Assembly: GCA_963710945.1 (NCBI GenBank)
Contig: CAVQCH010000007.1
Coordinates: 97,183 to 161,182, forward strand
DNA: 64,000 nt
Source: an uncultured Acidobacteriota bacterium
GTDB taxonomy: Bacteria > Acidobacteriota > Thermoanaerobaculia > UBA5066 > Gp7-AA6
Direction of reading: 5' to 3'
Positions 1-55,660 of the stretch are shown piece by piece (position 1 is the first letter of the stretch; each line of letters opens with the position of its first letter). Below the pieces are notes generated by a model. The model was not told the origin of the DNA. It did not search any database and saw only the letters and a program-made list of their open reading frames with translations. A program made the translations under genes and the position numbers.

Positions 1-264
1 GGCGCCATCGTGATCGGCGAACACACCGCGGACGGCGGCGCCGGTTGGCGCCTGGGGGATTACCCGACCACGTTCCCGAACTCGGCACTCGAGCTGCACA
101 TGCCCGACGCGGTCGCGTACCGCCGCGACGGCTCGAGCTACAGGAACGGAATCGAGCCGGACATCGTCACGGGATGGGGCCCGCATGAGAGCGCCTCGGA
201 AAAAGCGAAAGAGTTCGTCGAAGCACTGAAGCAGGCCCTGGAGCGGGGGGGAGCGAGTCGCTGA
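1..264 (+). CDS. 3' end of a gene cut by the window edge; peptidase-like C-terminal fragment (S41/tail-specific-protease-like, tentative)
   Basis: Frame 1 is open from base 1 to TGA 262-264 (track ORF 10..264). The ending ...GIEPDIVTGWGP... is reminiscent of S41 peptidase C-termini. No catalytic motif lies inside the window. Confidence 0.3.
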   Translation, partial: GAIVIGEHTADGGAGWRLGDYPTTFPNSALELHMPDAVAYRRDGSSYRNGIEPDIVTGWGPHESASEKAKEFVEALKQALERGGASR

Positions 265-358
265 CCCGCAACGAGTACTCTACGCACATGCACCACCAGG
301 GTTTCGTCTCTCAGATCTCTACGTTCCTCGCCGAGCCCGTGATGGACGTTGAGCAGCC

Positions 359-856
359 ATGATCGCGGCCCGCGCCCGTGCGTTGCTAGATCGCTGGGAA
401 CGGCTCTGGGAAGTGCCGGGGCTGGCACGCTCCATCGATGTTGTTCCGAATCCGTTGCTACGGTCGACCTTGGGCAGATGCTTACCTTCTAGGCGACGTA
501 TCGAACTTCATCCCAGCGTCCTGAAGTCGCGGGGCCCGGCATTAGCTCAGATCCTCTGCCACGAGGCAGCCCATTTCGTCCTTCATGAGGCGATGGGTAG
601 AAAGGTGCGCCCACATGGTCAAGAATGGGCCAGACTTGTGCGAGCCGCTGGGTTCGAACCGACCACTAAATTGCGCAGCTGCATACTGAAGCCGAACCGA
701 CCGAAGCGAGCTGGACGCTATCGGTACGAGCACCGCTGCCTGATCTGTCACGCAGCCCGCTATGCCAATCGGCCGATTCGGAATTGGCGGTGCGCGAGTT
801 GTATGACTGCCGGGCTCTCGGGTGCAATGCGGATCTTGAAGAGCTCAGAAGCGTGA
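359..856 (+). CDS. SprT-like zinc metalloprotease (SprT/Wss1/Spartan-type), 165 aa
   Basis: Track ORF 359..856. HExxH motif (C-HEAAH-FVLHE, nt ~559-573), then PHGQEW, then a C-terminal four-Cys ribbon (CLICH ... CASC). This order and size fit bacterial SprT. Stop TGA 854-856 overlaps GTG 853 of the next gene. Confidence 0.7.
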   Translation: MIAARARALLDRWERLWEVPGLARSIDVVPNPLLRSTLGRCLPSRRRIELHPSVLKSRGPALAQILCHEAAHFVLHEAMGRKVRPHGQEWARLVRAAGFEPTTKLRSCILKPNRPKRAGRYRYEHRCLICHAARYANRPIRNWRCASCMTAGLSGAMRILKSSEA

Positions 857-3800
857 GCGCCGCGGGGCCCTGCCCTTTCTGCCAGATCGGGCCTGATCGG
901 ATCTTCCACACGGGCAGGCTCGCACTCGGGATTTGGGATGGTTTTCCTGTTGCTCCGGGCCACGCTCTGCTGGTGCCTAGGCGTCATGTGATGGGCTGGG
1001 CTGACGCAACGTCCCAGGAGCGCCTTGAGTTAACCGAAGCGATCTCGATTGCGTTCGACGCAATCAGACAGCGTTTCCCGGCCGACGGATTCAATGTCGG
1101 TATCAACCTGGGCGAGGCTGCTGGTCAGTCTGTTTCACACCTGCACGTTCATGTCATTCCACGCAGAGTGGGTGATCACTCAAACCCGAGAGGTGGCGTC
1201 CGCCACGTAATCCCGGCAAAGGGCGACTACTCGACTCCGGCCGAAGCTCCAAAGCGAGCAGACGAAGTTCGTTACCTTGTGCCGGGCGAAGGCGACCCGC
1301 TCTTACCCCATCTAGTTCACGAACTCGGAAAGGCAACGGCCGTGGACATTGCTGTCGCCTTCGTTCTAGAAAACGGCATCGCCCGCCTCGAAGAGCACTT
1401 TCGTGACGTCCTCAACCGAGGCGGGAGGATTCGCTTCCTGACCGGCAACTATCTCGACGTGACTGAGCCTCGCGCGTTGAGGAGGCTTCTCGACTTGGAA
1501 GGGAACATCGACCGAAGAATCTTCGAAACCAAGTCGCCAGAGCCGAAGTACGCCGATCGACCGTTCAAGACCTCCTTTCACCCAAAGGCTTACGTGACAA
1601 GAACAGACGGGGATGGCGTCGCCTTCATCGGTAGCTCGAACCTAAGCCAGAGCGCGCTGGTCAATGGGATCGAATGGAACTACCGCGTCGTGTCCTCCCG
1701 CGATGCGGCGGGTTTCCGCGACGTGCTCGATGGGTTCGAACGGCTATTCGTCCATCCAGCGACTCGCCCACTTACGGATGATTGGATCGACGTCTATGAA
1801 CGCGAGCGGAAGACCCCCCAGCCTGTAGCCGCTGATGCAATCGAAATCGAGACTCCTCCACCCCCTCCCGAGCCTCACGAGATCCAGCAAGAAGCCCTGA
1901 GGGCGCTTCAAGAGACGCGGGAGGCGGGGAATACGGCGGGCCTTGTGGTCCTCGCCACCGGTCTGGGAAAGACCTGGCTTTCCGCCTTCGATAGCTCGGA
2001 GTACCGCCGTGTTCTATTCGTCGCACATCGGGAGGAGATTCTCGGCCAAGCAAGAAAGACGTTTCGGAGCATCCGCCCGACAGCACGTTTGGGCTCCTTC
2101 TCCGGGGAAGAGAAGGACCTCGAGGCCGATGTCCTATTCGCTTCCATCCAGACGCTCGGGAAGCAGCGTCATCTCGACAGCTTCGCGCCGGATTCGTTCG
2201 ACTACGTGGTCGTAGACGAGTTCCATCACGCTGCAGCGTCAACCTATCGGCGCCTGATCGATTACTTCTGCCCAAACTTTCTGCTGGGCCTAACCGCTAC
2301 ACCAGAGCGCACTGACGGAGGCGATCTTCTTGGGTTGTGCCAGGAGAACATGGTGTATCGATGCGACCTCGCCGAGGCGATCACGCGCGGTCACCTATCG
2401 CCGTTCCACTACTTTGGAGTCCCGGACGAGGTTGACTACCGAAATATCCCGTGGCGTAGCTCTCGGTTCGATGAAGAAGCGCTCACGGAAGCCGTGGCGA
2501 CGCAGACTCGTGCTAAGAATGCCCTCGACCAGTACCGCCAGCGGGGTGGCACGAGAACCCTCGGGTTCTGTGTGTCGCAGCGTCACGCCGATTTCATGGC
2601 CGATTTCTTTCTCAAGGAAGGAATTCGTGCTGTTGCCGTCCACGCGGGCAGCACAAGCGCACCTCGAGCCGACTCACTGGAAAGACTCGAGGCCGGAACG
2701 CTGGACGTGGTGTTCGCAGTGGACATGTTCAACGAGGGCGTAGATCTTCCTGACCTCGATACGGTGATGATGCTTCGCCCTACGGAGTCTCGGATCCTTT
2801 GGATTCAGCAACTGGGAAGGGGGCTTCGAAAGGCGGAAGGGAAGTCGCACCTCACTGTCATCGATTACATCGGCAACCACAGAACCTTCCTTCTCAAACC
2901 GCAAACGCTCTTCCAGCTGCCGAGCGGCGATTCGGCGATTCGAGACGCTCTAGACCGGCTTCAAGCAGGGACCATTGAGCTGCCGCCGGGTTGTGAGGTC
3001 ACCTACGATCTAAAGGCGATTGAAGTCCTCAGAGCACTCCTTCGGATCCCCAAGGCTGAGCTAGACGCGCTCCGCCGCTTCTATGAGGACTTCCGCGAAT
3101 TGCATGGCGTTCGGCCTACAGCCACCGAAGCGTTTCACGAGGGCTACAACCCGCGCTCGGCGAGAAAGAGCCACGGATCTTGGCTCAGGTTCGTCGAAGC
3201 CATGGGGGACATGACAGACACGCAACGAACGGCTATAGGCGAAGCTGGAGCTTTCTTAGATTCCCTCGAAACGACCGAAATGACAAAGAGTTTCAAGATA
3301 TTGGTGCTCCTGGCAATGCTGAACGGCGACCATTTTCCCGGCGAAATTTCAGTCTCGGAATTGACGAAAGGCGTTCGAACCCTGGCTGTCAGGACGGAGA
3401 CGCTTCGGGGTGAATTCGGTGAGTCCCTCGAGAATGACGCCATGCTTGCAGACTTGCTGGAGAGGAACCCAATTAACGCCTGGGTGGGAGGAAAAGGGAC
3501 CAGCGGTGTCCCCTATTTCGAGTACCGCGAGGGCATCTTCCGGACCACTGTGACTGCTTCCGGAAGATCAAGGTCGGCACTGCAAGAGCTGACCCGTGAG
3601 GTCGCCGACTGGCGACTTGTAGAGTACCTCGACCGCGCACGAACGCCCGCTCCAGGCGACACTCGCTTTGAGTGTGCTGTGAGCCACGCGAACGGTCGAC
3701 CACTCGTCTTTCTACCGAATCGGGCAGACGTACCGGGAATCCCTGAGGGGTGGGTTGATGTAACCGTGGATGGGGACCTCTATCAAGCCAATTTCGTCAA

Positions 3801-4428
3801 GGTGGCTGTAAACATTCTGAGACGGACCGGTTCGGAGCAAAACGAACTCGGCTCGGTCCTCCGCGGGTGGTTTGGCCCTGACGCCGGATTACCGGGAACG
3901 AGTCATCGTGTTGCCTTCGAAAAGGGCAACAAGGGCTTAAGACTGATCCCCCTGGGCCGCCGAGAAGGAGTGCTTCAGCTCTGGAGGAGCTATTCGAGGG
4001 AGGAAATCCCAAAGCTCTTTGGCCTCGACTACTCGCCCTTTCTTTGGCAGCAGGGATTTATTCCTCAGGGCAAGCACATGTTTCTACTCGTAACCCTGGA
4101 CAAGGGTAGTCATGCGGAGCAGTTTCAGTACAAGGACCGCTTCCTGAGCGCCGACCGCTTCCAGTGGCAGAGCCAGAATCGCACGGCTCAAGAGAGCAAG
4201 CATGGGCGGCAGATCCGAGATCATCAAGCACTTGGAATTGCATCCCACCTTTTCGTGCGAGCTCGAAGCAAAAGCCCTCAGGGCACGGCCAGCCCATTCG
4301 TCTATTGCGGAGACGTCAAGTTCGTACGTTGGGAGGGGAATAAGCCGATAACTGTCGAATGGCGGCTGCCTGAGTCGGTTCCGGAAAGGTGGCAGGCGGC
4401 GTTTATCGTCCCAGAGACAAATGGATAG
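853..4428 (+). CDS. HIT - PLD(HKD) nuclease - SF2 helicase - unassigned region - DUF3427 fusion protein; SauUSI-like Type IV (modification-dependent) restriction core with an extra N-terminal HIT domain
   Basis: One uninterrupted ORF (track 784..4428). I prefer GTG 853, which gives a GTGA stop/start overlap with the SprT-like gene; ATG 784 is the alternative. Motifs read directly: HIT CPFCQI ... SHLHVHVIPRR (~1138-1164); a single HKD, FHPKAYV...GSSNLS (~1576-1650); helicase motif I LATGLGKTW (~1954-1980), II VVVDEFHH (~2209-2232), III LGLTATPER, VI QQLGRGLRK (~2806-2832). The C-terminal block ...HLFVRARS...FVYCGDVKFV... (~3970-4425) fits my recollection of DUF3427. Confidence 0.8.
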   Translation: MSAAGPCPFCQIGPDRIFHTGRLALGIWDGFPVAPGHALLVPRRHVMGWADATSQERLELTEAISIAFDAIRQRFPADGFNVGINLGEAAGQSVSHLHVHVIPRRVGDHSNPRGGVRHVIPAKGDYSTPAEAPKRADEVRYLVPGEGDPLLPHLVHELGKATAVDIAVAFVLENGIARLEEHFRDVLNRGGRIRFLTGNYLDVTEPRALRRLLDLEGNIDRRIFETKSPEPKYADRPFKTSFHPKAYVTRTDGDGVAFIGSSNLSQSALVNGIEWNYRVVSSRDAAGFRDVLDGFERLFVHPATRPLTDDWIDVYERERKTPQPVAADAIEIETPPPPPEPHEIQQEALRALQETREAGNTAGLVVLATGLGKTWLSAFDSSEYRRVLFVAHREEILGQARKTFRSIRPTARLGSFSGEEKDLEADVLFASIQTLGKQRHLDSFAPDSFDYVVVDEFHHAAASTYRRLIDYFCPNFLLGLTATPERTDGGDLLGLCQENMVYRCDLAEAITRGHLSPFHYFGVPDEVDYRNIPWRSSRFDEEALTEAVATQTRAKNALDQYRQRGGTRTLGFCVSQRHADFMADFFLKEGIRAVAVHAGSTSAPRADSLERLEAGTLDVVFAVDMFNEGVDLPDLDTVMMLRPTESRILWIQQLGRGLRKAEGKSHLTVIDYIGNHRTFLLKPQTLFQLPSGDSAIRDALDRLQAGTIELPPGCEVTYDLKAIEVLRALLRIPKAELDALRRFYEDFRELHGVRPTATEAFHEGYNPRSARKSHGSWLRFVEAMGDMTDTQRTAIGEAGAFLDSLETTEMTKSFKILVLLAMLNGDHFPGEISVSELTKGVRTLAVRTETLRGEFGESLENDAMLADLLERNPINAWVGGKGTSGVPYFEYREGIFRTTVTASGRSRSALQELTREVADWRLVEYLDRARTPAPGDTRFECAVSHANGRPLVFLPNRADVPGIPEGWVDVTVDGDLYQANFVKVAVNILRRTGSEQNELGSVLRGWFGPDAGLPGTSHRVAFEKGNKGLRLIPLGRREGVLQLWRSYSREEIPKLFGLDYSPFLWQQGFIPQGKHMFLLVTLDKGSHAEQFQYKDRFLSADRFQWQSQNRTAQESKHGRQIRDHQALGIASHLFVRARSKSPQGTASPFVYCGDVKFVRWEGNKPITVEWRLPESVPERWQAAFIVPETNG

Positions 4429-4670
4429 GAGCGTTGCGCGCGTTGTGGGGCAGTCTTGATTCGCCGGTTCGAGTCCCTGAACATTCTTGAGAGCCCTCCC
4501 CGCCGGGCTAAGTAGACGGCGAGATCTTGTACGCCTCTCTAGAGCTCCATCCGGCACCCTGGCGGACGCCTCGCGCCGGGGCTTGAGGCTGGGGAAATAT
4601 TCTTCCGTCTTGCCCTTGCTACGCGATAATCGATCAGATTAGATCGCAACCGAACTGAGAGGTCCCTAGC

Positions 4671-5282
4671 ATGAGAAGCCCCGTAACCCTGGGCGTCCTC
4701 CTCTGCGCCATCTCACTTCCCGGTTGTACGAGGTCTGATCCTCAACCAGCCGCCGGGGCTCCGACGCCTGAGCCCAAGACCCTCTACGTCGTCGTCACCG
4801 CGACACGGGCGCCTCGTGAAGCCGAGCCGACTTGGACTCCTGATCCCGAGCTAATGCTCATAACGCCGACAGCCAATCCAACGGCGCCACCGCCCACGCC
4901 GCGACCGACAGTAGATATTTCCTCGATTCCAAGCCTCGAGCGCCCGATGGGGCCGCCCGCCGATGCCAGGTCGCGCAGTGATCAGCTTGCCGGATGCATG
5001 AACTATTCGGCCGAGCCAAACCCCGGCGGTCAGTGGATCCGAATCAAGGTTACAGGCCGGAATTCTTGCGGCCAGCCAGTGACCGCTGACGAGTCATGGT
5101 TCGAAATTGCGGCAATGGACTTGAACGGCGCGCAAGTTGGGCACGAAGTCGGACGGTTCCAGAACGTAATCCCGCCGCAGGGCCAAGCTGAGACGTACAT
5201 AGCTGTCGATTGCCCGAAGGCGCCATGCCGCTACAGTGCTGCTGCATGGTGGGCCGCGGGTGGCGGACGGCGACCGCAATAG
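4671..5282 (+). CDS. hypothetical lipoprotein with Pro/Thr-rich linker
   Basis: Track ORF. N-terminal signal with lipobox (LLCAISLPG-C), then a Pro/Thr/Ala-rich linker and a Cys-containing C-terminal domain. No domain recognised. Confidence 0.5.
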   Translation: MRSPVTLGVLLCAISLPGCTRSDPQPAAGAPTPEPKTLYVVVTATRAPREAEPTWTPDPELMLITPTANPTAPPPTPRPTVDISSIPSLERPMGPPADARSRSDQLAGCMNYSAEPNPGGQWIRIKVTGRNSCGQPVTADESWFEIAAMDLNGAQVGHEVGRFQNVIPPQGQAETYIAVDCPKAPCRYSAAAWWAAGGGRRPQ

Positions 5283-5471
5283 CTCTCCACCCTAATTCCT
5301 CCCCGCCCTAGAGGGCACGGCGGAAGCGGGCGCGGAGGCGGCCCGGTAGGCTTCCGCGAAGGCCTTGGTCAGTCCTAATTTCCTGACTTCAAAGCCGCAC
5401 GCGGCTTCGTCGCGCTCCCGCCCGCCCTCCCGTACAATGCCGCCCGCCTCCTACCGAAAGGACCGCACCCG

Positions 5472-8400
5472 ATGAAGAACCGTCTCGCCGCCGCCCTGGC
5501 TCTGCTCTTCGCGCTGCCGCTCTCCGGCCCAGCAGCCGCCGAAGCCTCCGATCGACAAGCCGCCGCTGGCGCCGCCGACGGAGGATGCGTCGAAGGAGAA
5601 GGAGAAAGAGAAGCCGAAGTGGGACGTGGCGAACCCGCCGTATCCCTACGACAACACCGTCTCGCTCGACCTGACGTCCGGCACGTGGATGTCGCTCGAC
5701 GTGTCGCCGGACGGGAAGGAGATCGTCTTCGACCTTCTCGGCGACATCTACACGATCCCGTTCGGGGGCGGCGAGGCGAGGGCGCTGACGTCCGGTATCC
5801 CGTGGGACATGCAGCCGCGCTATTCGCCGGACGGCAAGTGGATCGCGTTCACGTCCGACCGCTCGGGCGGCGACAACATCTGGATCATGGACCGCGACGG
5901 GAAGAACCCGCAGCAGGTGACGAAGGAGAGCTTCCGCCTGCCGAACAGCCCGGCCTGGGCGCCCGACTCGCAGTTCATCGCGGCGCGCAAGCACTACACC
6001 GGCACGCGCTCGCTCGGCGCGGGCGAGATCTGGCTCTATCACCGCACGGGCGGCGAGGGCCTGCAGATGACCAAGCGCGCGACCGAGCAGAAGGACGACG
6101 GCGAGCCCGCGTTCTCGCCCGACGGCCGCTACCTCTACTGGTCCGCCGACACGACGCCCGGAAAGATCTGGGAGTACAACAAGGATCCGAACGGCCAGAT
6201 CTACGTCATCAAGCGTCTCGACCGCGACACGGGAAAGATCGTCAACTACGTCACCGGTCCGGGGGGATCGATCCGGCCGACGCCTTCGCCGGACGGGAAG
6301 TCGCTCGCGTTCGTGCGGCGGGTTCGGTACAAGTCCGTGCTGTTCGTGAAGGACCTCGAGTCGGGCGTCGAGCGGGCGGTGTACGACGGGCTCGAGCGGG
6401 ACATGCAGGAGACGTGGGCGATCCAGGGGGTCTATCCCGGGATGGCGTGGACGCCGGATTCGAAGTCGGTGGTGTTCTGGTCGGGAGGGTTTCTCCAGCG
6501 CGCCGACCTCTCGGGGAACCAGGTTTACAAGATTCCGTTTCACGTGAAGGACACGCGGAAGACGGCGTCGGCGGTGCGGTTTGCGGTGGATGTGTTGACG
6601 GGCGTCATGGCGGCGTCGGCTTCGCCGTACATCAGTGGGGCCGGAGGGAGCGCCCCTCACCCCGACCCTCTCCCGCGGGGAGAGGGGGGGCTAAGGGTTC
6701 GTCCGGTAAGAATTCCTCTCCACCCAGCGGGGGGAAGGGCAGGGTGAGGGGGGGACTCCGCCGGGCCGGTCTTCCCGGTACGGATGCTGCGGTGGGTCTC
6801 CGTCTCGCCCGACGGCAAGCGCGTCGCCTACTCGGCGCTCGGGTACATCTACGTCCGCGACCTCCCGAACGGCACGCCGAAGCGCCTGACGAAGCAGACG
6901 GCCGACTACGAGTACTTCCCGTCCTGGTCGCGCGACTCTAAGTCGCTCGTCTACGCGACCTGGAACGACGAGACCCTGGGAACGATCCGAGTTGCCACGG
7001 TCGCGACCGGTGCTTCGAAGACGATCACCGACAAGCCCGGCCACTACTACGAGCCCGTCTTCTCGCCCGACGGTGCGCGGATCGTCTACCGCAAGTCCGA
7101 CGGCGGCTATCTCGTCTCGACGGCCTGGTCCGCCGATCCCGGCCTCTACCAGGTGCCATCGTCCGGCGGCAAGTCCACCCTCATCACCGAGGACGGCTCC
7201 CTGCCGCGCTTCGGCAAGGCGAGCGACCGCGTCTTCTTCGTCAAGACCGACGGCGGCGAGGACCAGATCGCGCCGGCCAAGCGCATCCTCGCCTCGATCA
7301 AGCTCGACGGTTCCGAGCCGCACGAGTACTACATCTCGGATCTCGCGACGGAGTTCGCGATCTCGCCCGACGGCAAGTGGCTCGGCTTCCGCGAGGGCTT
7401 CAACGCCTACGTCACGCCCTTCGTCGAGACCGGGCGACGCGTCGAGATCGGTCCGAAGAGCAAGGCCGTTCCGCTGACGCGCGTGTCGAAGGAGGCGGGC
7501 GAGAACCTTCACTTCTCGGGCGATTCGACGCGCCTCTACTGGTCCTATGGTCCCGAGCTCTACCAGCGGGACTTGAAAGAAGCCTTCGCGTTTCTCCCCG
7601 GCGCGCCGGAGAAGCTGCCCGAGCCGGCGGGGGAGGGCATGAACATCTCCTTCGTCGAGCCCGTGGACATGCCGCCGAGCACGAGCACGGTCGCGTTCAC
7701 GGGCGGCCGCGCCGTGACGATGAACGGGGACGAGGTCATCGAGGACAGCGTCGTGCTCGTCGAGGGCAACCGCATCAAGGCCGTCGGCAGGAGAGGAGAG
7801 GTCTCGATCCCCGCCGGCGCGAAGACCTTCGACGTCACCGGCAAGACCGTCCTTCCCGGCTTCGTCGACGCTCACTACCACGGCTCCTTCGCCGCCGACG
7901 GCGTCCTGCCGCAGCAGAACTGGCACAGCGACGCATCGCTCGCTTTTGGCGTCACCACGGTCCACGATCCGTCGAACGACACGGGCGAGGTGTTCACGGC
8001 CGCCGAGCAGGCGCGCGCCGGCCTCCTCCGCGCACCGCGCATCTTCTCGACCGGCACGATCCTCTACGGCGCCGCCGGCGATTTCAAAGCCGAGATCGAT
8101 TCGATCGACGACGCGCGCGCGCACCTGCACCGCATGAAGGCCGCCGGCGCGATCTCGGTCAAGAGCTACCAGCAGCCGCGCCGCGAGCAGCGCCAGCAGA
8201 TCCTCGCCGCCGCCCGCGAGACCGGGATCATGGTCGTCCCCGAAGGCGGATCGCTCTTCGAGATGAACATGAACATGGTCGTGGACGGGCACACCACGAT
8301 CGAGCACACGATCCCCGTTGCCAACATCTACCAGGACGTCGAGGCGATCTGGCCTCCGGGGAAGGTCGGCTACACGCCGACGCTTCTCGTCGGCTACGGC

Positions 8401-8913
8401 GGCATGTTCGGCGAGGTGTACTGGTATGCGAAGACGAACGTCTGGGAGAACCCGCGTCTCTCGAAGTTCGTCCCGCCCTTCGTCCTCGACCCGCGCTCGC
8501 GCCGCCGCACGATGGCGCCCGACGACGAGTGGAACCACGTCAACCTCGGGAAGATCGCCGCGAAGCTCGACAAGGACCACGTCCTCGTCAACACCGGCGC
8601 CCACGGCCAGCGCGAGGGACTCGGGCTCCACTGGGAGATCTGGATGCTCGCCCAGGGAGGCTTCACGCCGCTCGAGGCCCTGCGCTGCGCGACGCTGAAC
8701 GGCGCGAAGAGCCTCGGCATGGACAAGGACATCGGGTCGCTCCAGGCCGGCAAGCTTGCCGACATCGTCGTCATCGACGGCAACCCTCTCCAGGACATTC
8801 GCCAGTCCGAGAAGGTCGCCTGGACCATGGTCAACGGGAGGCTCTACGATGCCGCGACGTTGAACGAAACGGGGGCGAGGGAGAAGAAGCGCGCGAAGTA
8901 CTGGTGGGAGTAA
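5472..8913 (+). pseudogene. periplasmic TolB-like beta-propeller + amidohydrolase fusion, disrupted by one frameshift and an in-frame repeat insertion carrying a stop
   Basis: Signal peptide MKNRLAAALALLFALPLSGPAAA starts at ATG 5472 in frame 3. The propeller (SPDGK repeats, track ORF 5626..6747) is in frame 1, which is open only from 5476 and has no start codon before GTG 5626. Frame 1 hits TGA 6745-6747 inside a repeat element and resumes in the same frame (track ORF 6784..8913; C-terminal amidohydrolase with ...GFVDAHYHG...). Confidence 0.65.
6640..6770. mobile_element. MITE-like inverted-repeat element (family B) inserted inside the amidohydrolase coding region
   Basis: Arm cccctcaccccgaccctctcccgcggggagaggg (6653-6690), a ~24-nt spacer, then the inverted arm cctctccacccagcggggggaagggcagggtgaggggggg (to ~6752). 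The same motif occurs at 57981-58020, 58353-58394 and 62990-63063. It interrupts ...AVRFAVDV / VRMLRWVSVSPDGK.... Confidence 0.55.
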
Positions 8914-55299: not shown

Positions 55300-55660
55300 T
55301 GGTGGAGGCGGCGGGAGTTGAACCCGCGTCCGGAAGCGCTACGGGAGAGGCCACTCCATGCTCAGCCTCTTCTTGGTTCTCGCCCCGCCGCCTCGAGAAG
55401 AGGCAAAACGGCGGAAGGGCAACCCCGAATTTGTTTCGCCGCTCCGTCCGGGGGACCGGAGCGGCTACACCCGCATTTCGCGACGTCGGCCGAGGCGCGG
55501 CGGGTGCGCTACACGGCAAACGAGGCTACTTAATTAAGCAGCCAGAGCGAAGTTGCTGTTGTTCGCAGCTACTGTTTTTCACCCTGCTTTTACGAGGAGG
55601 GGTGAGACCTCGGCATGCAACCTCTCGCGCAATCGTCCCCGTCGAAGCCGTTTCGCCCCC
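55300..55660 (-). ncRNA. ssrA: tmRNA (SsrA)
   Basis: Minus strand starts GGGGGCGAAACGGCTTCGACGGGG and ends ...GGGTTCAACTCCCGCCGCCTCCACCA. The internal tag frame GCT GCG AAC AAC AGC AAC TTC GCT CTG GCT GCT TAA gives (A)ANNSNFALAA. About 361 nt. Confidence 0.9.

Follow-up and report, generated by a model that had tools for sequence, protein, structure and literature searches.

Restriction enzymes of the SauUSI type are major barriers to gene transfer. SauUSI is an ATP-dependent endonuclease that depends on 5-methylcytosine (5mC) or 5-hydroxymethylcytosine (5hmC) in its DNA substrate (PMC7913695; PMC3141236), and it forms a dimer held together through phospholipase D (PLD) domains, with a helical coupler at residues 618–805 and an SRA-fold target-recognition domain (TRD) (PMC7913695). 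A NUDIX gene linked to SauUSI and at least 60 homologues was reported in 2011 (PMC3141236). Here we analyze a 64,000-nucleotide stretch of DNA from an uncultured Acidobacteriota bacterium (GenBank assembly GCA_963710945.1, contig CAVQCH010000007.1, positions 97,183–161,182 of the forward strand; hereafter the window, with coordinates counted from its first letter) in which a small gene for a SprT-like (Spartan-type) zinc metalloprotease overlaps the start of a gene for a 1191-aa protein with a SauUSI-like core. Like SauUSI and ScoA3I, the large protein combines a PLD nuclease domain with one HxK motif, a superfamily 2 (SF2) DExH ATPase, a helical coupler and an SRA-like DUF3427 TRD; as with SauUSI, no methyltransferase gene adjoins it and NUDIX genes are linked in its relatives. 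SauUSI differs in being without the N-terminal HIT domain of ~125 aa and without the β domain of ~100 aa between coupler and TRD, and the window enzyme, unlike SauUSI, has a translationally coupled SprT-like gene upstream. With moderate confidence, we read the locus as a horizontally mobile, self-contained unit encoding an ATP-driven Type IV enzyme of the SauUSI kind that depends on DNA modification, with a Spartan-like protease that would clear or limit the enzyme on DNA.

Both genes lie on the plus strand. The SprT-like protein is encoded by a 165-aa open reading frame (ORF) with an ATG start at positions 359–856, and the large protein by a long ORF in a different frame (784–4428) whose likely start is GTG 853, giving a gene for 1191 aa at 853–4428; we favor this start because homologues align from about residue 7 and because the stop/start overlap recurs among them. 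Near position 850 the bases run GAA GCG TGA with GTG at 853–855, and the SprT stop overlaps the enzyme start by four nucleotides (GTGA, 853–856). Both ORFs and the GTGA overlap had been described in a first-pass annotation of the sequence, and reading the bases at 853–856 confirms them. An NTGA overlap is present in 31 of 41 listed pairs, a set that includes the window itself and two contigs with one identical SprT protein, and six other pairs overlap by 8–11 nucleotides. The overlap is real and recurrent, although the stoichiometric function that the first-pass annotation drew from it exceeds what an overlap can show. A promoter and terminator scan of positions 1–5,000 returned no signal above shuffled expectation.

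Automatic annotation hides this pairing. The SprT ORF is missing from the stored gene calls, both in L170 (the database copy of the window sequence) and in a related locus, L171, and the HIT domain is shortened; the database protein P0001 begins at M47, within that domain. Surveys that rely on stored gene calls will under-count the pairing of SprT with the enzyme. The same discrepancy is what speaks for reading the adjacency as incidental, or the fusion as an assembly or gene-calling artefact, since the stored calls of the identical sequence lack the SprT ORF and truncate HIT. Against it, the same fusion and overlap recur across dozens of genomes and metagenomes that were assembled independently and belong to many phyla, cultured strains included. 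Recurrent fusion, NTGA overlaps and loci found by way of SprT itself (described below) refute this explanation, to which we assign a vanishingly small probability.

The core of the large protein is, judged on its sequence, clearly a homologue of SauUSI. A phmmer search against PDB sequences matched SauUSI (PDB 7clg) with E = 3.9e-99, aligning aa 140–686 to SauUSI residues 30–571 and aa 1041–1155 to the SauUSI TRD (803–914), at an identity of only ~30–35% across the core. Pfam matches to ResIII (aa 340–486, E = 1.6e-37) and Helicase_C (aa 558–659, E = 7e-14) define the SF2 helicase-like ATPase (aa 336–690; 1858–2922), and the best PADLOC model for the protein is mREase_IV (E = 6e-118). The PLDc_2 match (aa 163–287, E = 7e-5) falls under the Pfam cutoff; the PLD nuclease domain (aa ~140–330; 1270–1842) is secured because the region aligns to SauUSI residues 30–571, and its conserved motif agrees, so that the nuclease named in the first-pass annotation stands even though PLDc_2 alone misses it. 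An alignment of 120 homologues showed at least 98% conservation of the single PLD motif H243-P-K245 (H243-x-K245) with G260-S-S-N263, and of the ATPase motifs G370-L-G-K-T374, D455-E-F-H458 and Q652-x-x-G-R-G-x-R659; the TATP motif of the SF2 ATPase is also conserved across this alignment. No methyltransferase gene was found beside the pair in the window or its upstream extension (the immediate neighborhood), and no methylase was among the 25 commonest families, those listed, of 150 neighboring ORFs. Homology with SauUSI suggests that the cassette would act in defense.

We next examined the C-terminal half, where the first-pass annotation had described an unassigned stretch of ~360 aa before a DUF3427-like end. 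The stretch is real: Pfam gives nothing useful on aa 686–1038 even at E ≤ 10, and an AlphaFold2 (AF2) model of aa 686–1191 (pLDDT 90) resolves it into two parts, being helical through model residues 8–244 and forming strands at model residues 253–349 (~aa 938–1035) before a C-terminal α/β domain. The helical part (aa ~691–930; 2923–3642) is the counterpart of the SauUSI coupler 618–805. The β domain that follows, ~100 aa long (aa ~938–1035; 3664–3957), is an insert missing from SauUSI-like relatives and possibly a B3-like DNA-binding pseudobarrel, an assignment drawn from a single Foldseek match to the VRN1 B3 domain (4i1k; probability 0.93, TM(target) 0.43). At the C terminus the DUF3427 match (aa 1039–1178, E = 5e-23) covers profile positions 125–273 of 280 only, and Foldseek matches the C-terminal model to 7clg, the SUVH6 SRA domain, TagI, MspJI, ScoMcrA and AbaSI. 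What had been called a DUF3427-like end is accordingly an SRA-like TRD corresponding to the C-terminal half of DUF3427 (aa 1039–1191; 3967–4425): the SRA-fold match upholds the label, and the profile match limits it to that half. The remaining parts named at first pass (the HIT motif, a single HKD motif, the SF2 motifs) are likewise borne out by Pfam and the homologue alignment, and phmmer, Foldseek (7clg and SRA readers) and PADLOC all agree on the SauUSI-like core.

A scan with one genome per species yielded 333 relatives of the large protein, of which the best 80 loci were analyzed. About 10 of these 80 stop right after the β domain and have no SRA domain (including L039, L050, L052, L061, L063, L064, L077 and L080), and about 7 run from the coupler directly into DUF3427 with no β domain (L060, L070, L073, L075, L076, L078 and L079). 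The C-terminal readers are therefore modular.

The N-terminal HIT domain (aa 17–105; 901–1167) matches Pfam with E = 1.6e-19 (70.8 bits against a cutoff of 21.5), and at least 98% of the 120 homologues retain its triad H96-x-H98-x-H100. Its closest PDB domains by phmmer are 6af2, 3wo5 and 3ano (Ap4A phosphorylase); across PDB and NCBIfam the best matches are Ap4A phosphorylase/ATP adenylyltransferase and Fhit, all far under equivalog cutoffs, and DcpS_C, the Pfam family that includes aprataxin, also passes its cutoff weakly. The domain is predicted to be catalytically intact, as a hydrolase of nucleotides or phosphoramidates. The first-pass annotation had allowed that the fusion might be unique to this contig or a misassembly, which is now ruled out: HIT (PF01230), helicase and DUF3427 occur together in all of the 120 best-scoring clusters from a search of 5.8 billion proteins, and HIT is present in all 80 best of the 333 relatives wherever the contig reaches the N terminus. 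These 80 loci span Acidobacteriota, Myxococcota, Planctomycetota, Gemmatimonadota, Methylomirabilota, Chloroflexota, Verrucomicrobiota and Proteobacteria, with the cultured hosts Zeimonas arvi (with SprT) and Rhizobium, Ensifer and Microvirga (without SprT). No relative of the large protein was found in viral contigs. A sister clade of 910–1050 aa proteins, mostly from Rhodobacterales and ~50% identical, has no HIT domain. Three HIT-less enzymes (L165–L167) adjoin a gene for a ~1970-aa helicase with DUF4011, AAA_11/12, MTES_1575 and DUF3320 domains, the two genes overlapping by 4 nucleotides in one case, and may represent a different partnership.

The small protein is an SprT-type protease with a zinc ribbon, as first proposed. 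It matches SprT-like (PF10263) with E = 1.6e-14 (54.1 bits against a gathering cutoff of 25.6), and C67, H68, E69, H72, H86, C127, C130, C145 and C148 are invariant in 20 SprT sequences; these include the active site H68-E69-x-x-H72 with the third zinc ligand H86 (560–616) and the four-cysteine zinc ribbon C127, C130, C145 and C148 (737–802). In Foldseek its AF2 model (pLDDT 89) matches human SPRTN best, at the SprT domain (6mdx and 6mdw; probability 1.0 over 171–176 columns). The metalloprotease and zinc-binding sub-domains are both included in the match, although TM scores reach only ~0.45–0.48, since the sub-domains are oriented differently. Minigluzincins and IrrE/PprI follow, with a weak match to ArdC (6sna) at rank 31, and a sequence search of the SprT protein against the PDB gave zinc-ribbon noise only. 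A library clustered at 50% identity contains 406 representatives of the subfamily (E ≤ 1e-30), of which the 150 best-scoring are all small stand-alone proteins; two SprT homologues also match PF01863. SPRTN is a DNA-activated protease that acts on DNA–protein crosslinks, and to our knowledge no function has been established for the bacterial SprT-family proteases. Family membership suggests that the window protein would be a DNA-dependent protease of DNA-bound proteins. Separately, matches of the SprT model in BFVD show that proteins of this fold are frequent in phages, among them T4-like Aeromonas and Vibrio phages, jumbo phages and actinophages.

The two genes belong together well beyond the window. 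We built a hidden Markov model (HMM) from the window SprT protein together with 19 homologues from the database and searched six-frame ORFs with it. Of the 80 genome loci, 44 have an SprT ORF, 43 of them directly upstream of the enzyme on the same strand; SprT is adjacent in 41 of the 67 loci that are evaluable, those whose contig extends far enough upstream and whose enzyme is nearly complete. In a neighbor-joining tree of the enzyme, the loci with SprT group in one large clade, with ~6 losses and 8 parsimony changes, and an alphaproteobacterial enzyme clade is without SprT. The reverse test started from 80 metagenome loci found through SprT peptide patterns alone, 65 of which have at least 400 nucleotides downstream: the HIT domain of the enzyme lies directly downstream of SprT in 47 of the 65, and all 47 of these giants carry HIT. 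Linkage between SprT and DUF3427 helicases is therefore recurrent from both directions. On the question of co-phylogeny raised at first pass, the pairwise identities of SprT and enzyme co-vary (Pearson r = 0.56; 0 of 999 permutations as high), a correlation that falls to r = 0.33 without near-duplicates. SprT was absent from all six HIT-less sister contexts (two plasmids and four chromosomal or metagenomic loci), and the plasmids of PLSDB contain no SprT relative and the enzyme only in HIT-less or SprT-less versions. Some SprT-anchored loci have no giant: in L094 (1086–4816) and L144 (675–4720) SprT stands directly before SbcD/SbcC-like genes, and in L021 (12450–14599) SprT precedes a gene for a NUDIX fusion protein and the enzyme is absent.

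Within the samples examined, this restriction of SprT to HIT-bearing enzymes (47 of 47 downstream giants, 0 of 6 HIT-less contexts) could reflect a protease that serves as a switch or in counter-counter-defense. SprT would then cut the poorly conserved linker between HIT and PLD, freeing the enzyme from an autoinhibitory HIT domain and so activating it, or would destroy anti-restriction proteins of phages or plasmids and proteins such as relaxases or terminal proteins that are covalently attached to incoming DNA; clearing the enzyme would not be its task in either form. The linker at aa ~125–140 is indeed the least conserved N-terminal stretch among the 120 homologues, and proteases of the SprT fold are common in phages and used by ArdC against restriction, so that such proteases do act in conflict. 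HIT-bearing enzymes without SprT are nevertheless common, and HIT is thus no obligate inhibitor that needs SprT; moreover, the conserved HIT triad argues for an enzymatic rather than a merely steric role, and co-variation shows no HIT-specific signal. We regard this reading, taken over both of its forms, as unlikely.

A comparison with L171 defines the mobile unit. The only blastn alignment between the window and L171 joins positions 324–4386 (plus strand) to 1299–5366 of that contig at 84% identity; its enzyme is 89% identical in protein, and the flanks of L171 carry toxin–antitoxin genes. Since identity is confined to 324–4386 and the flanks are unrelated, the two genes travel as one cassette. 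GC content of the pair is 58–61%, against ~62–72% (mostly 64–72%) elsewhere in the window. Neighboring genes in the window and its upstream extension encode an S41 peptidase fragment, a lipoprotein and a PD40/amidohydrolase protein, and the stored contig of the same sequence (L170) has an HSP70 fragment and the S41 peptidase fragment upstream. Forty nucleotides past the stop of the large gene, at 4466–4483, lies a tRNA T-arm-like sequence (GGTTCGAGTCC / GGTTCGAGTCCCTGAACA), which may be the remnant of an integration site; a tRNA or attachment site as island border was rejected, as ARAGORN and Rfam call none and the T-arm-like fragment is not repeated in the window.

These features bear on a reading in terms of genome maintenance, in which the cassette repairs DNA–protein crosslinks or blocked ends as a bacterial analogue of SPRTN, TDP1 (PLD) and aprataxin (HIT): SprT would trim the crosslinked protein, PLD and HIT would remove the residual adduct, and the helicase would give access. 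The cassette encodes all three classes of enzyme, each with its active site intact, the SprT model matches a protease of DNA–protein crosslink repair, and SbcCD, which processes protein-blocked DNA ends, is encoded directly after SprT in L094 and L144. That adjacency is rare (2–3 of 80 loci), and we dropped it as support for repair. The PLD domain aligns to the SauUSI/Nuc-type nuclease and not to Tdp1, and at the C terminus stands an SRA-type reader like those of modification-dependent restriction enzymes. Patchy distribution, a mobile cassette, variable neighbors and low GC content speak further against repair, as does the swapping of C-terminal reader modules among relatives, which is typical of conflict systems. 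Both the maintenance role and its stepwise division of labor strike us as distinctly improbable.

Clustering the flanks of the 80 loci identified SprT (34 loci by blastp clustering, against 44 by HMM) and NUDIX as conserved neighbors and no third conserved gene, every other family being found in at most 6 of the 80. A NudG/MutT-like NUDIX gene flanks the pair in ~12–15 of 80 loci, usually just upstream of SprT (loci including L007, L014, L016, L017, L023, L026, L034, L035, L039, L051 and L056), and the best-scoring model for these neighbors is NudG, named "pyrimidine (deoxy)nucleoside triphosphate diphosphatase". This extends the known linkage of NUDIX with SauUSI to pairs of SprT and enzyme; no NUDIX gene was found in the window. 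The other neighbors are heterogeneous and include Fic/SoFic, WYL, PIN, HNH, ParB-N, HerA, NERD-UvrD, TniQ, SIR2 and a DUF4011 helicase.

E. coli NudG prefers 5-methyl-dCTP, and the NUDIX neighbors could point to a role in the nucleotide pool. HIT and a NudG-like NUDIX enzyme would together hydrolyze modified or signaling nucleotides, such as species derived from 5-methyl- or 5-hydroxymethyl-dCTP, or Ap4A, and would thereby starve phages that build modified DNA or prevent modified bases from entering host DNA, sparing it attack by the cell's own enzyme. The best matches of the HIT domain are to Ap4A phosphorylase and Fhit-type enzymes, the NUDIX neighbors fit NudG best, and NUDIX linkage is known for SauUSI. 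HIT enzymes, however, cleave NMP–X bonds and are not known as dNTP sanitizers, NUDIX and HIT co-occur rather than replacing one another, the window is without a NUDIX gene, and the presence of SprT is left unexplained. We consider such a function very doubtful, and likewise either of the two effects on phage or host.

Returning to the reading we prefer, a SauUSI-kind enzyme attended by a Spartan-like protease, we propose the following course of events. The large protein would dimerize through its single-HKD PLD domain, as homology with SauUSI suggests, and would need to do so to complete the PLD active site; its SRA-like C-terminal domain would read a base modification, most probably one on cytosine, with possible assistance from the B3-like β domain; and ATP hydrolysis would drive translocation along DNA, followed by cleavage. 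As a prediction from homology and conserved motifs, this SauUSI-type part is well supported. SprT, made by translation coupled to that of the enzyme, would act on DNA-bound protein, most plausibly the restriction enzyme itself, either removing stalled or covalently trapped (phosphohistidine-linked) nuclease or limiting self-damage as in restriction alleviation. The HIT domain may fill the role of the NUDIX gene linked to SauUSI, or alternatively might clean nucleotide- or peptide-linked DNA ends or hydrolyze a phosphoramidate remnant. BfiI-type PLD nucleases cut via a covalent phosphohistidine intermediate, a stalled or trapped translocating nuclease is the type of lesion that Spartan-type proteases remove, and ClpXP degrades HsdR in restriction alleviation, an instance of proteolytic control of a restriction motor. 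ArdC, which has a Spartan-like protease domain, is needed in the recipient cell against Type I restriction (PMC7213743).

Several observations weigh against this course. SprT is missing beside 26 of the 67 evaluable HIT-bearing relatives (~40%), which means that the enzyme works without SprT and that the protease is therefore accessory rather than an obligate subunit. Co-variation computed domain by domain (HIT, PLD, helicase, coupler and C terminus) identifies no specific partner of SprT; the helicase scores best at r = 0.33, which is probably phylogenetic signal only. With ~10 of 80 relatives lacking the SRA domain, reading of modified bases is not universal in the clade, and we know of no established covalent PLD–DNA intermediate for SauUSI. 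The neighboring genes fit variable, defense-rich regions, a fit that is suggestive only.

A stronger form of the proposal would make the cassette a self-resolving covalent nuclease, in which the PLD domain cuts via a phosphohistidine–DNA intermediate that at times traps the enzyme on DNA, SprT digests the trapped enzyme and the HIT domain, as a phosphoramidase, cleaves the leftover P–N link between histidine and the phosphoryl group of DNA. We think this improbable; if true, it would provide a defense-embedded bacterial counterpart of the logic of SPRTN, TDP1 and aprataxin and the first function assigned to a bacterial SprT protease.

Two further features of the window lie apart from the cassette. 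A frame for a PD40 β-propeller and amidohydrolase protein (5626–8913) is interrupted, in frame, by an element at 6653–6751 with a 22-nucleotide inverted repeat and a 55-nucleotide spacer that resembles a small MITE- or REP-like insertion. A tmRNA gene at 55300–55660 on the minus strand specifies the tag peptide ANNSNFALAA.

Current classification does not capture the pair. The large gene is named "DUF3427 domain-containing protein" at NCBI and carries three COG-type functions at JGI; PADLOC would file it alone as an ordinary Type IV enzyme, and the SprT protein matches no model of PADLOC-DB v2 at E ≤ 0.01. The impression recorded at first pass that the combination has no system name therefore holds, as PADLOC models the large protein only. 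A link between SprT and SauUSI is absent from the searchable full-text literature, which does not extend to subscription journals, where a prior description is possible; SprT and DUF3427 are mentioned together once, incidentally, in a survey of His-Me finger nucleases. For HIT with DUF3427 or SauUSI the same texts gave two co-mentions, one of them only the program CD-HIT, and no evident account of the domain in that setting. The conserved combination of a SauUSI core with HIT in cis, a Spartan-like protease in trans and an extra B3-like module thus appears to be undescribed. Two extra hydrolases in a widespread clade from soil and water would make the single-protein picture of SauUSI-type enzymes incomplete, and a conserved, coupled pairing with one DNA enzyme offers a concrete substrate hypothesis for bacterial SprT. 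Links between proteases and translocating restriction enzymes have long been noted and remain unexplained, in ClpXP-mediated restriction alleviation, in YgjP within Type I operons and in ArdC, and the cassette provides a compact two-gene model for them.

Each part of the cassette has a described relative. The window SprT shares with SPRTN and Wss1 the HExxH motif with a third histidine and the metalloprotease and zinc-binding sub-domains; it is a stand-alone protein of 165 aa without the eukaryotic regulatory motifs, encoded beside a restriction-type nuclease, and its DNA dependence is predicted by analogy. Type I restriction–modification operons with an embedded YgjP/DUF45 (COG1451) metallopeptidase, a link that is functionally unexplained, also recurrently join a zinc metallopeptidase gene to a translocating helicase-nuclease, and two SprT homologues also match PF01863; the peptidase family and the restriction type are different. 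ArdC of plasmid R388 is likewise a Spartan/IrrE-like zinc protease in a conflict over restriction (PMC7213743), to which the SprT model has a weak fold match (6sna); it is an invader's protein that overcomes Type I restriction, whereas the window protease belongs to the restriction cassette, and ArdC has glutamate as third ligand and a different, ssDNA-binding domain. BfiI, NgoAVII and CglI resemble the large protein in combining a single-HKD PLD nuclease with a B3-like pseudobarrel (seen in the window as one Foldseek match), and NgoAVII and CglI also employ an SF2 ATPase (PMC7913695); in contrast to the window enzyme, all three recognize sequence without modification and lack both SRA and HIT domains. 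Finally, SPRTN, TDP1 and aprataxin draw on the same superfamilies (SprT, PLD and HIT) to act on protein- or nucleotide-linked DNA, whereas in the window the PLD domain is of the Nuc/SauUSI type, the HIT domain seems Fhit-like and is without the aprataxin zinc finger, and all three are carried together on a mobile restriction cassette.

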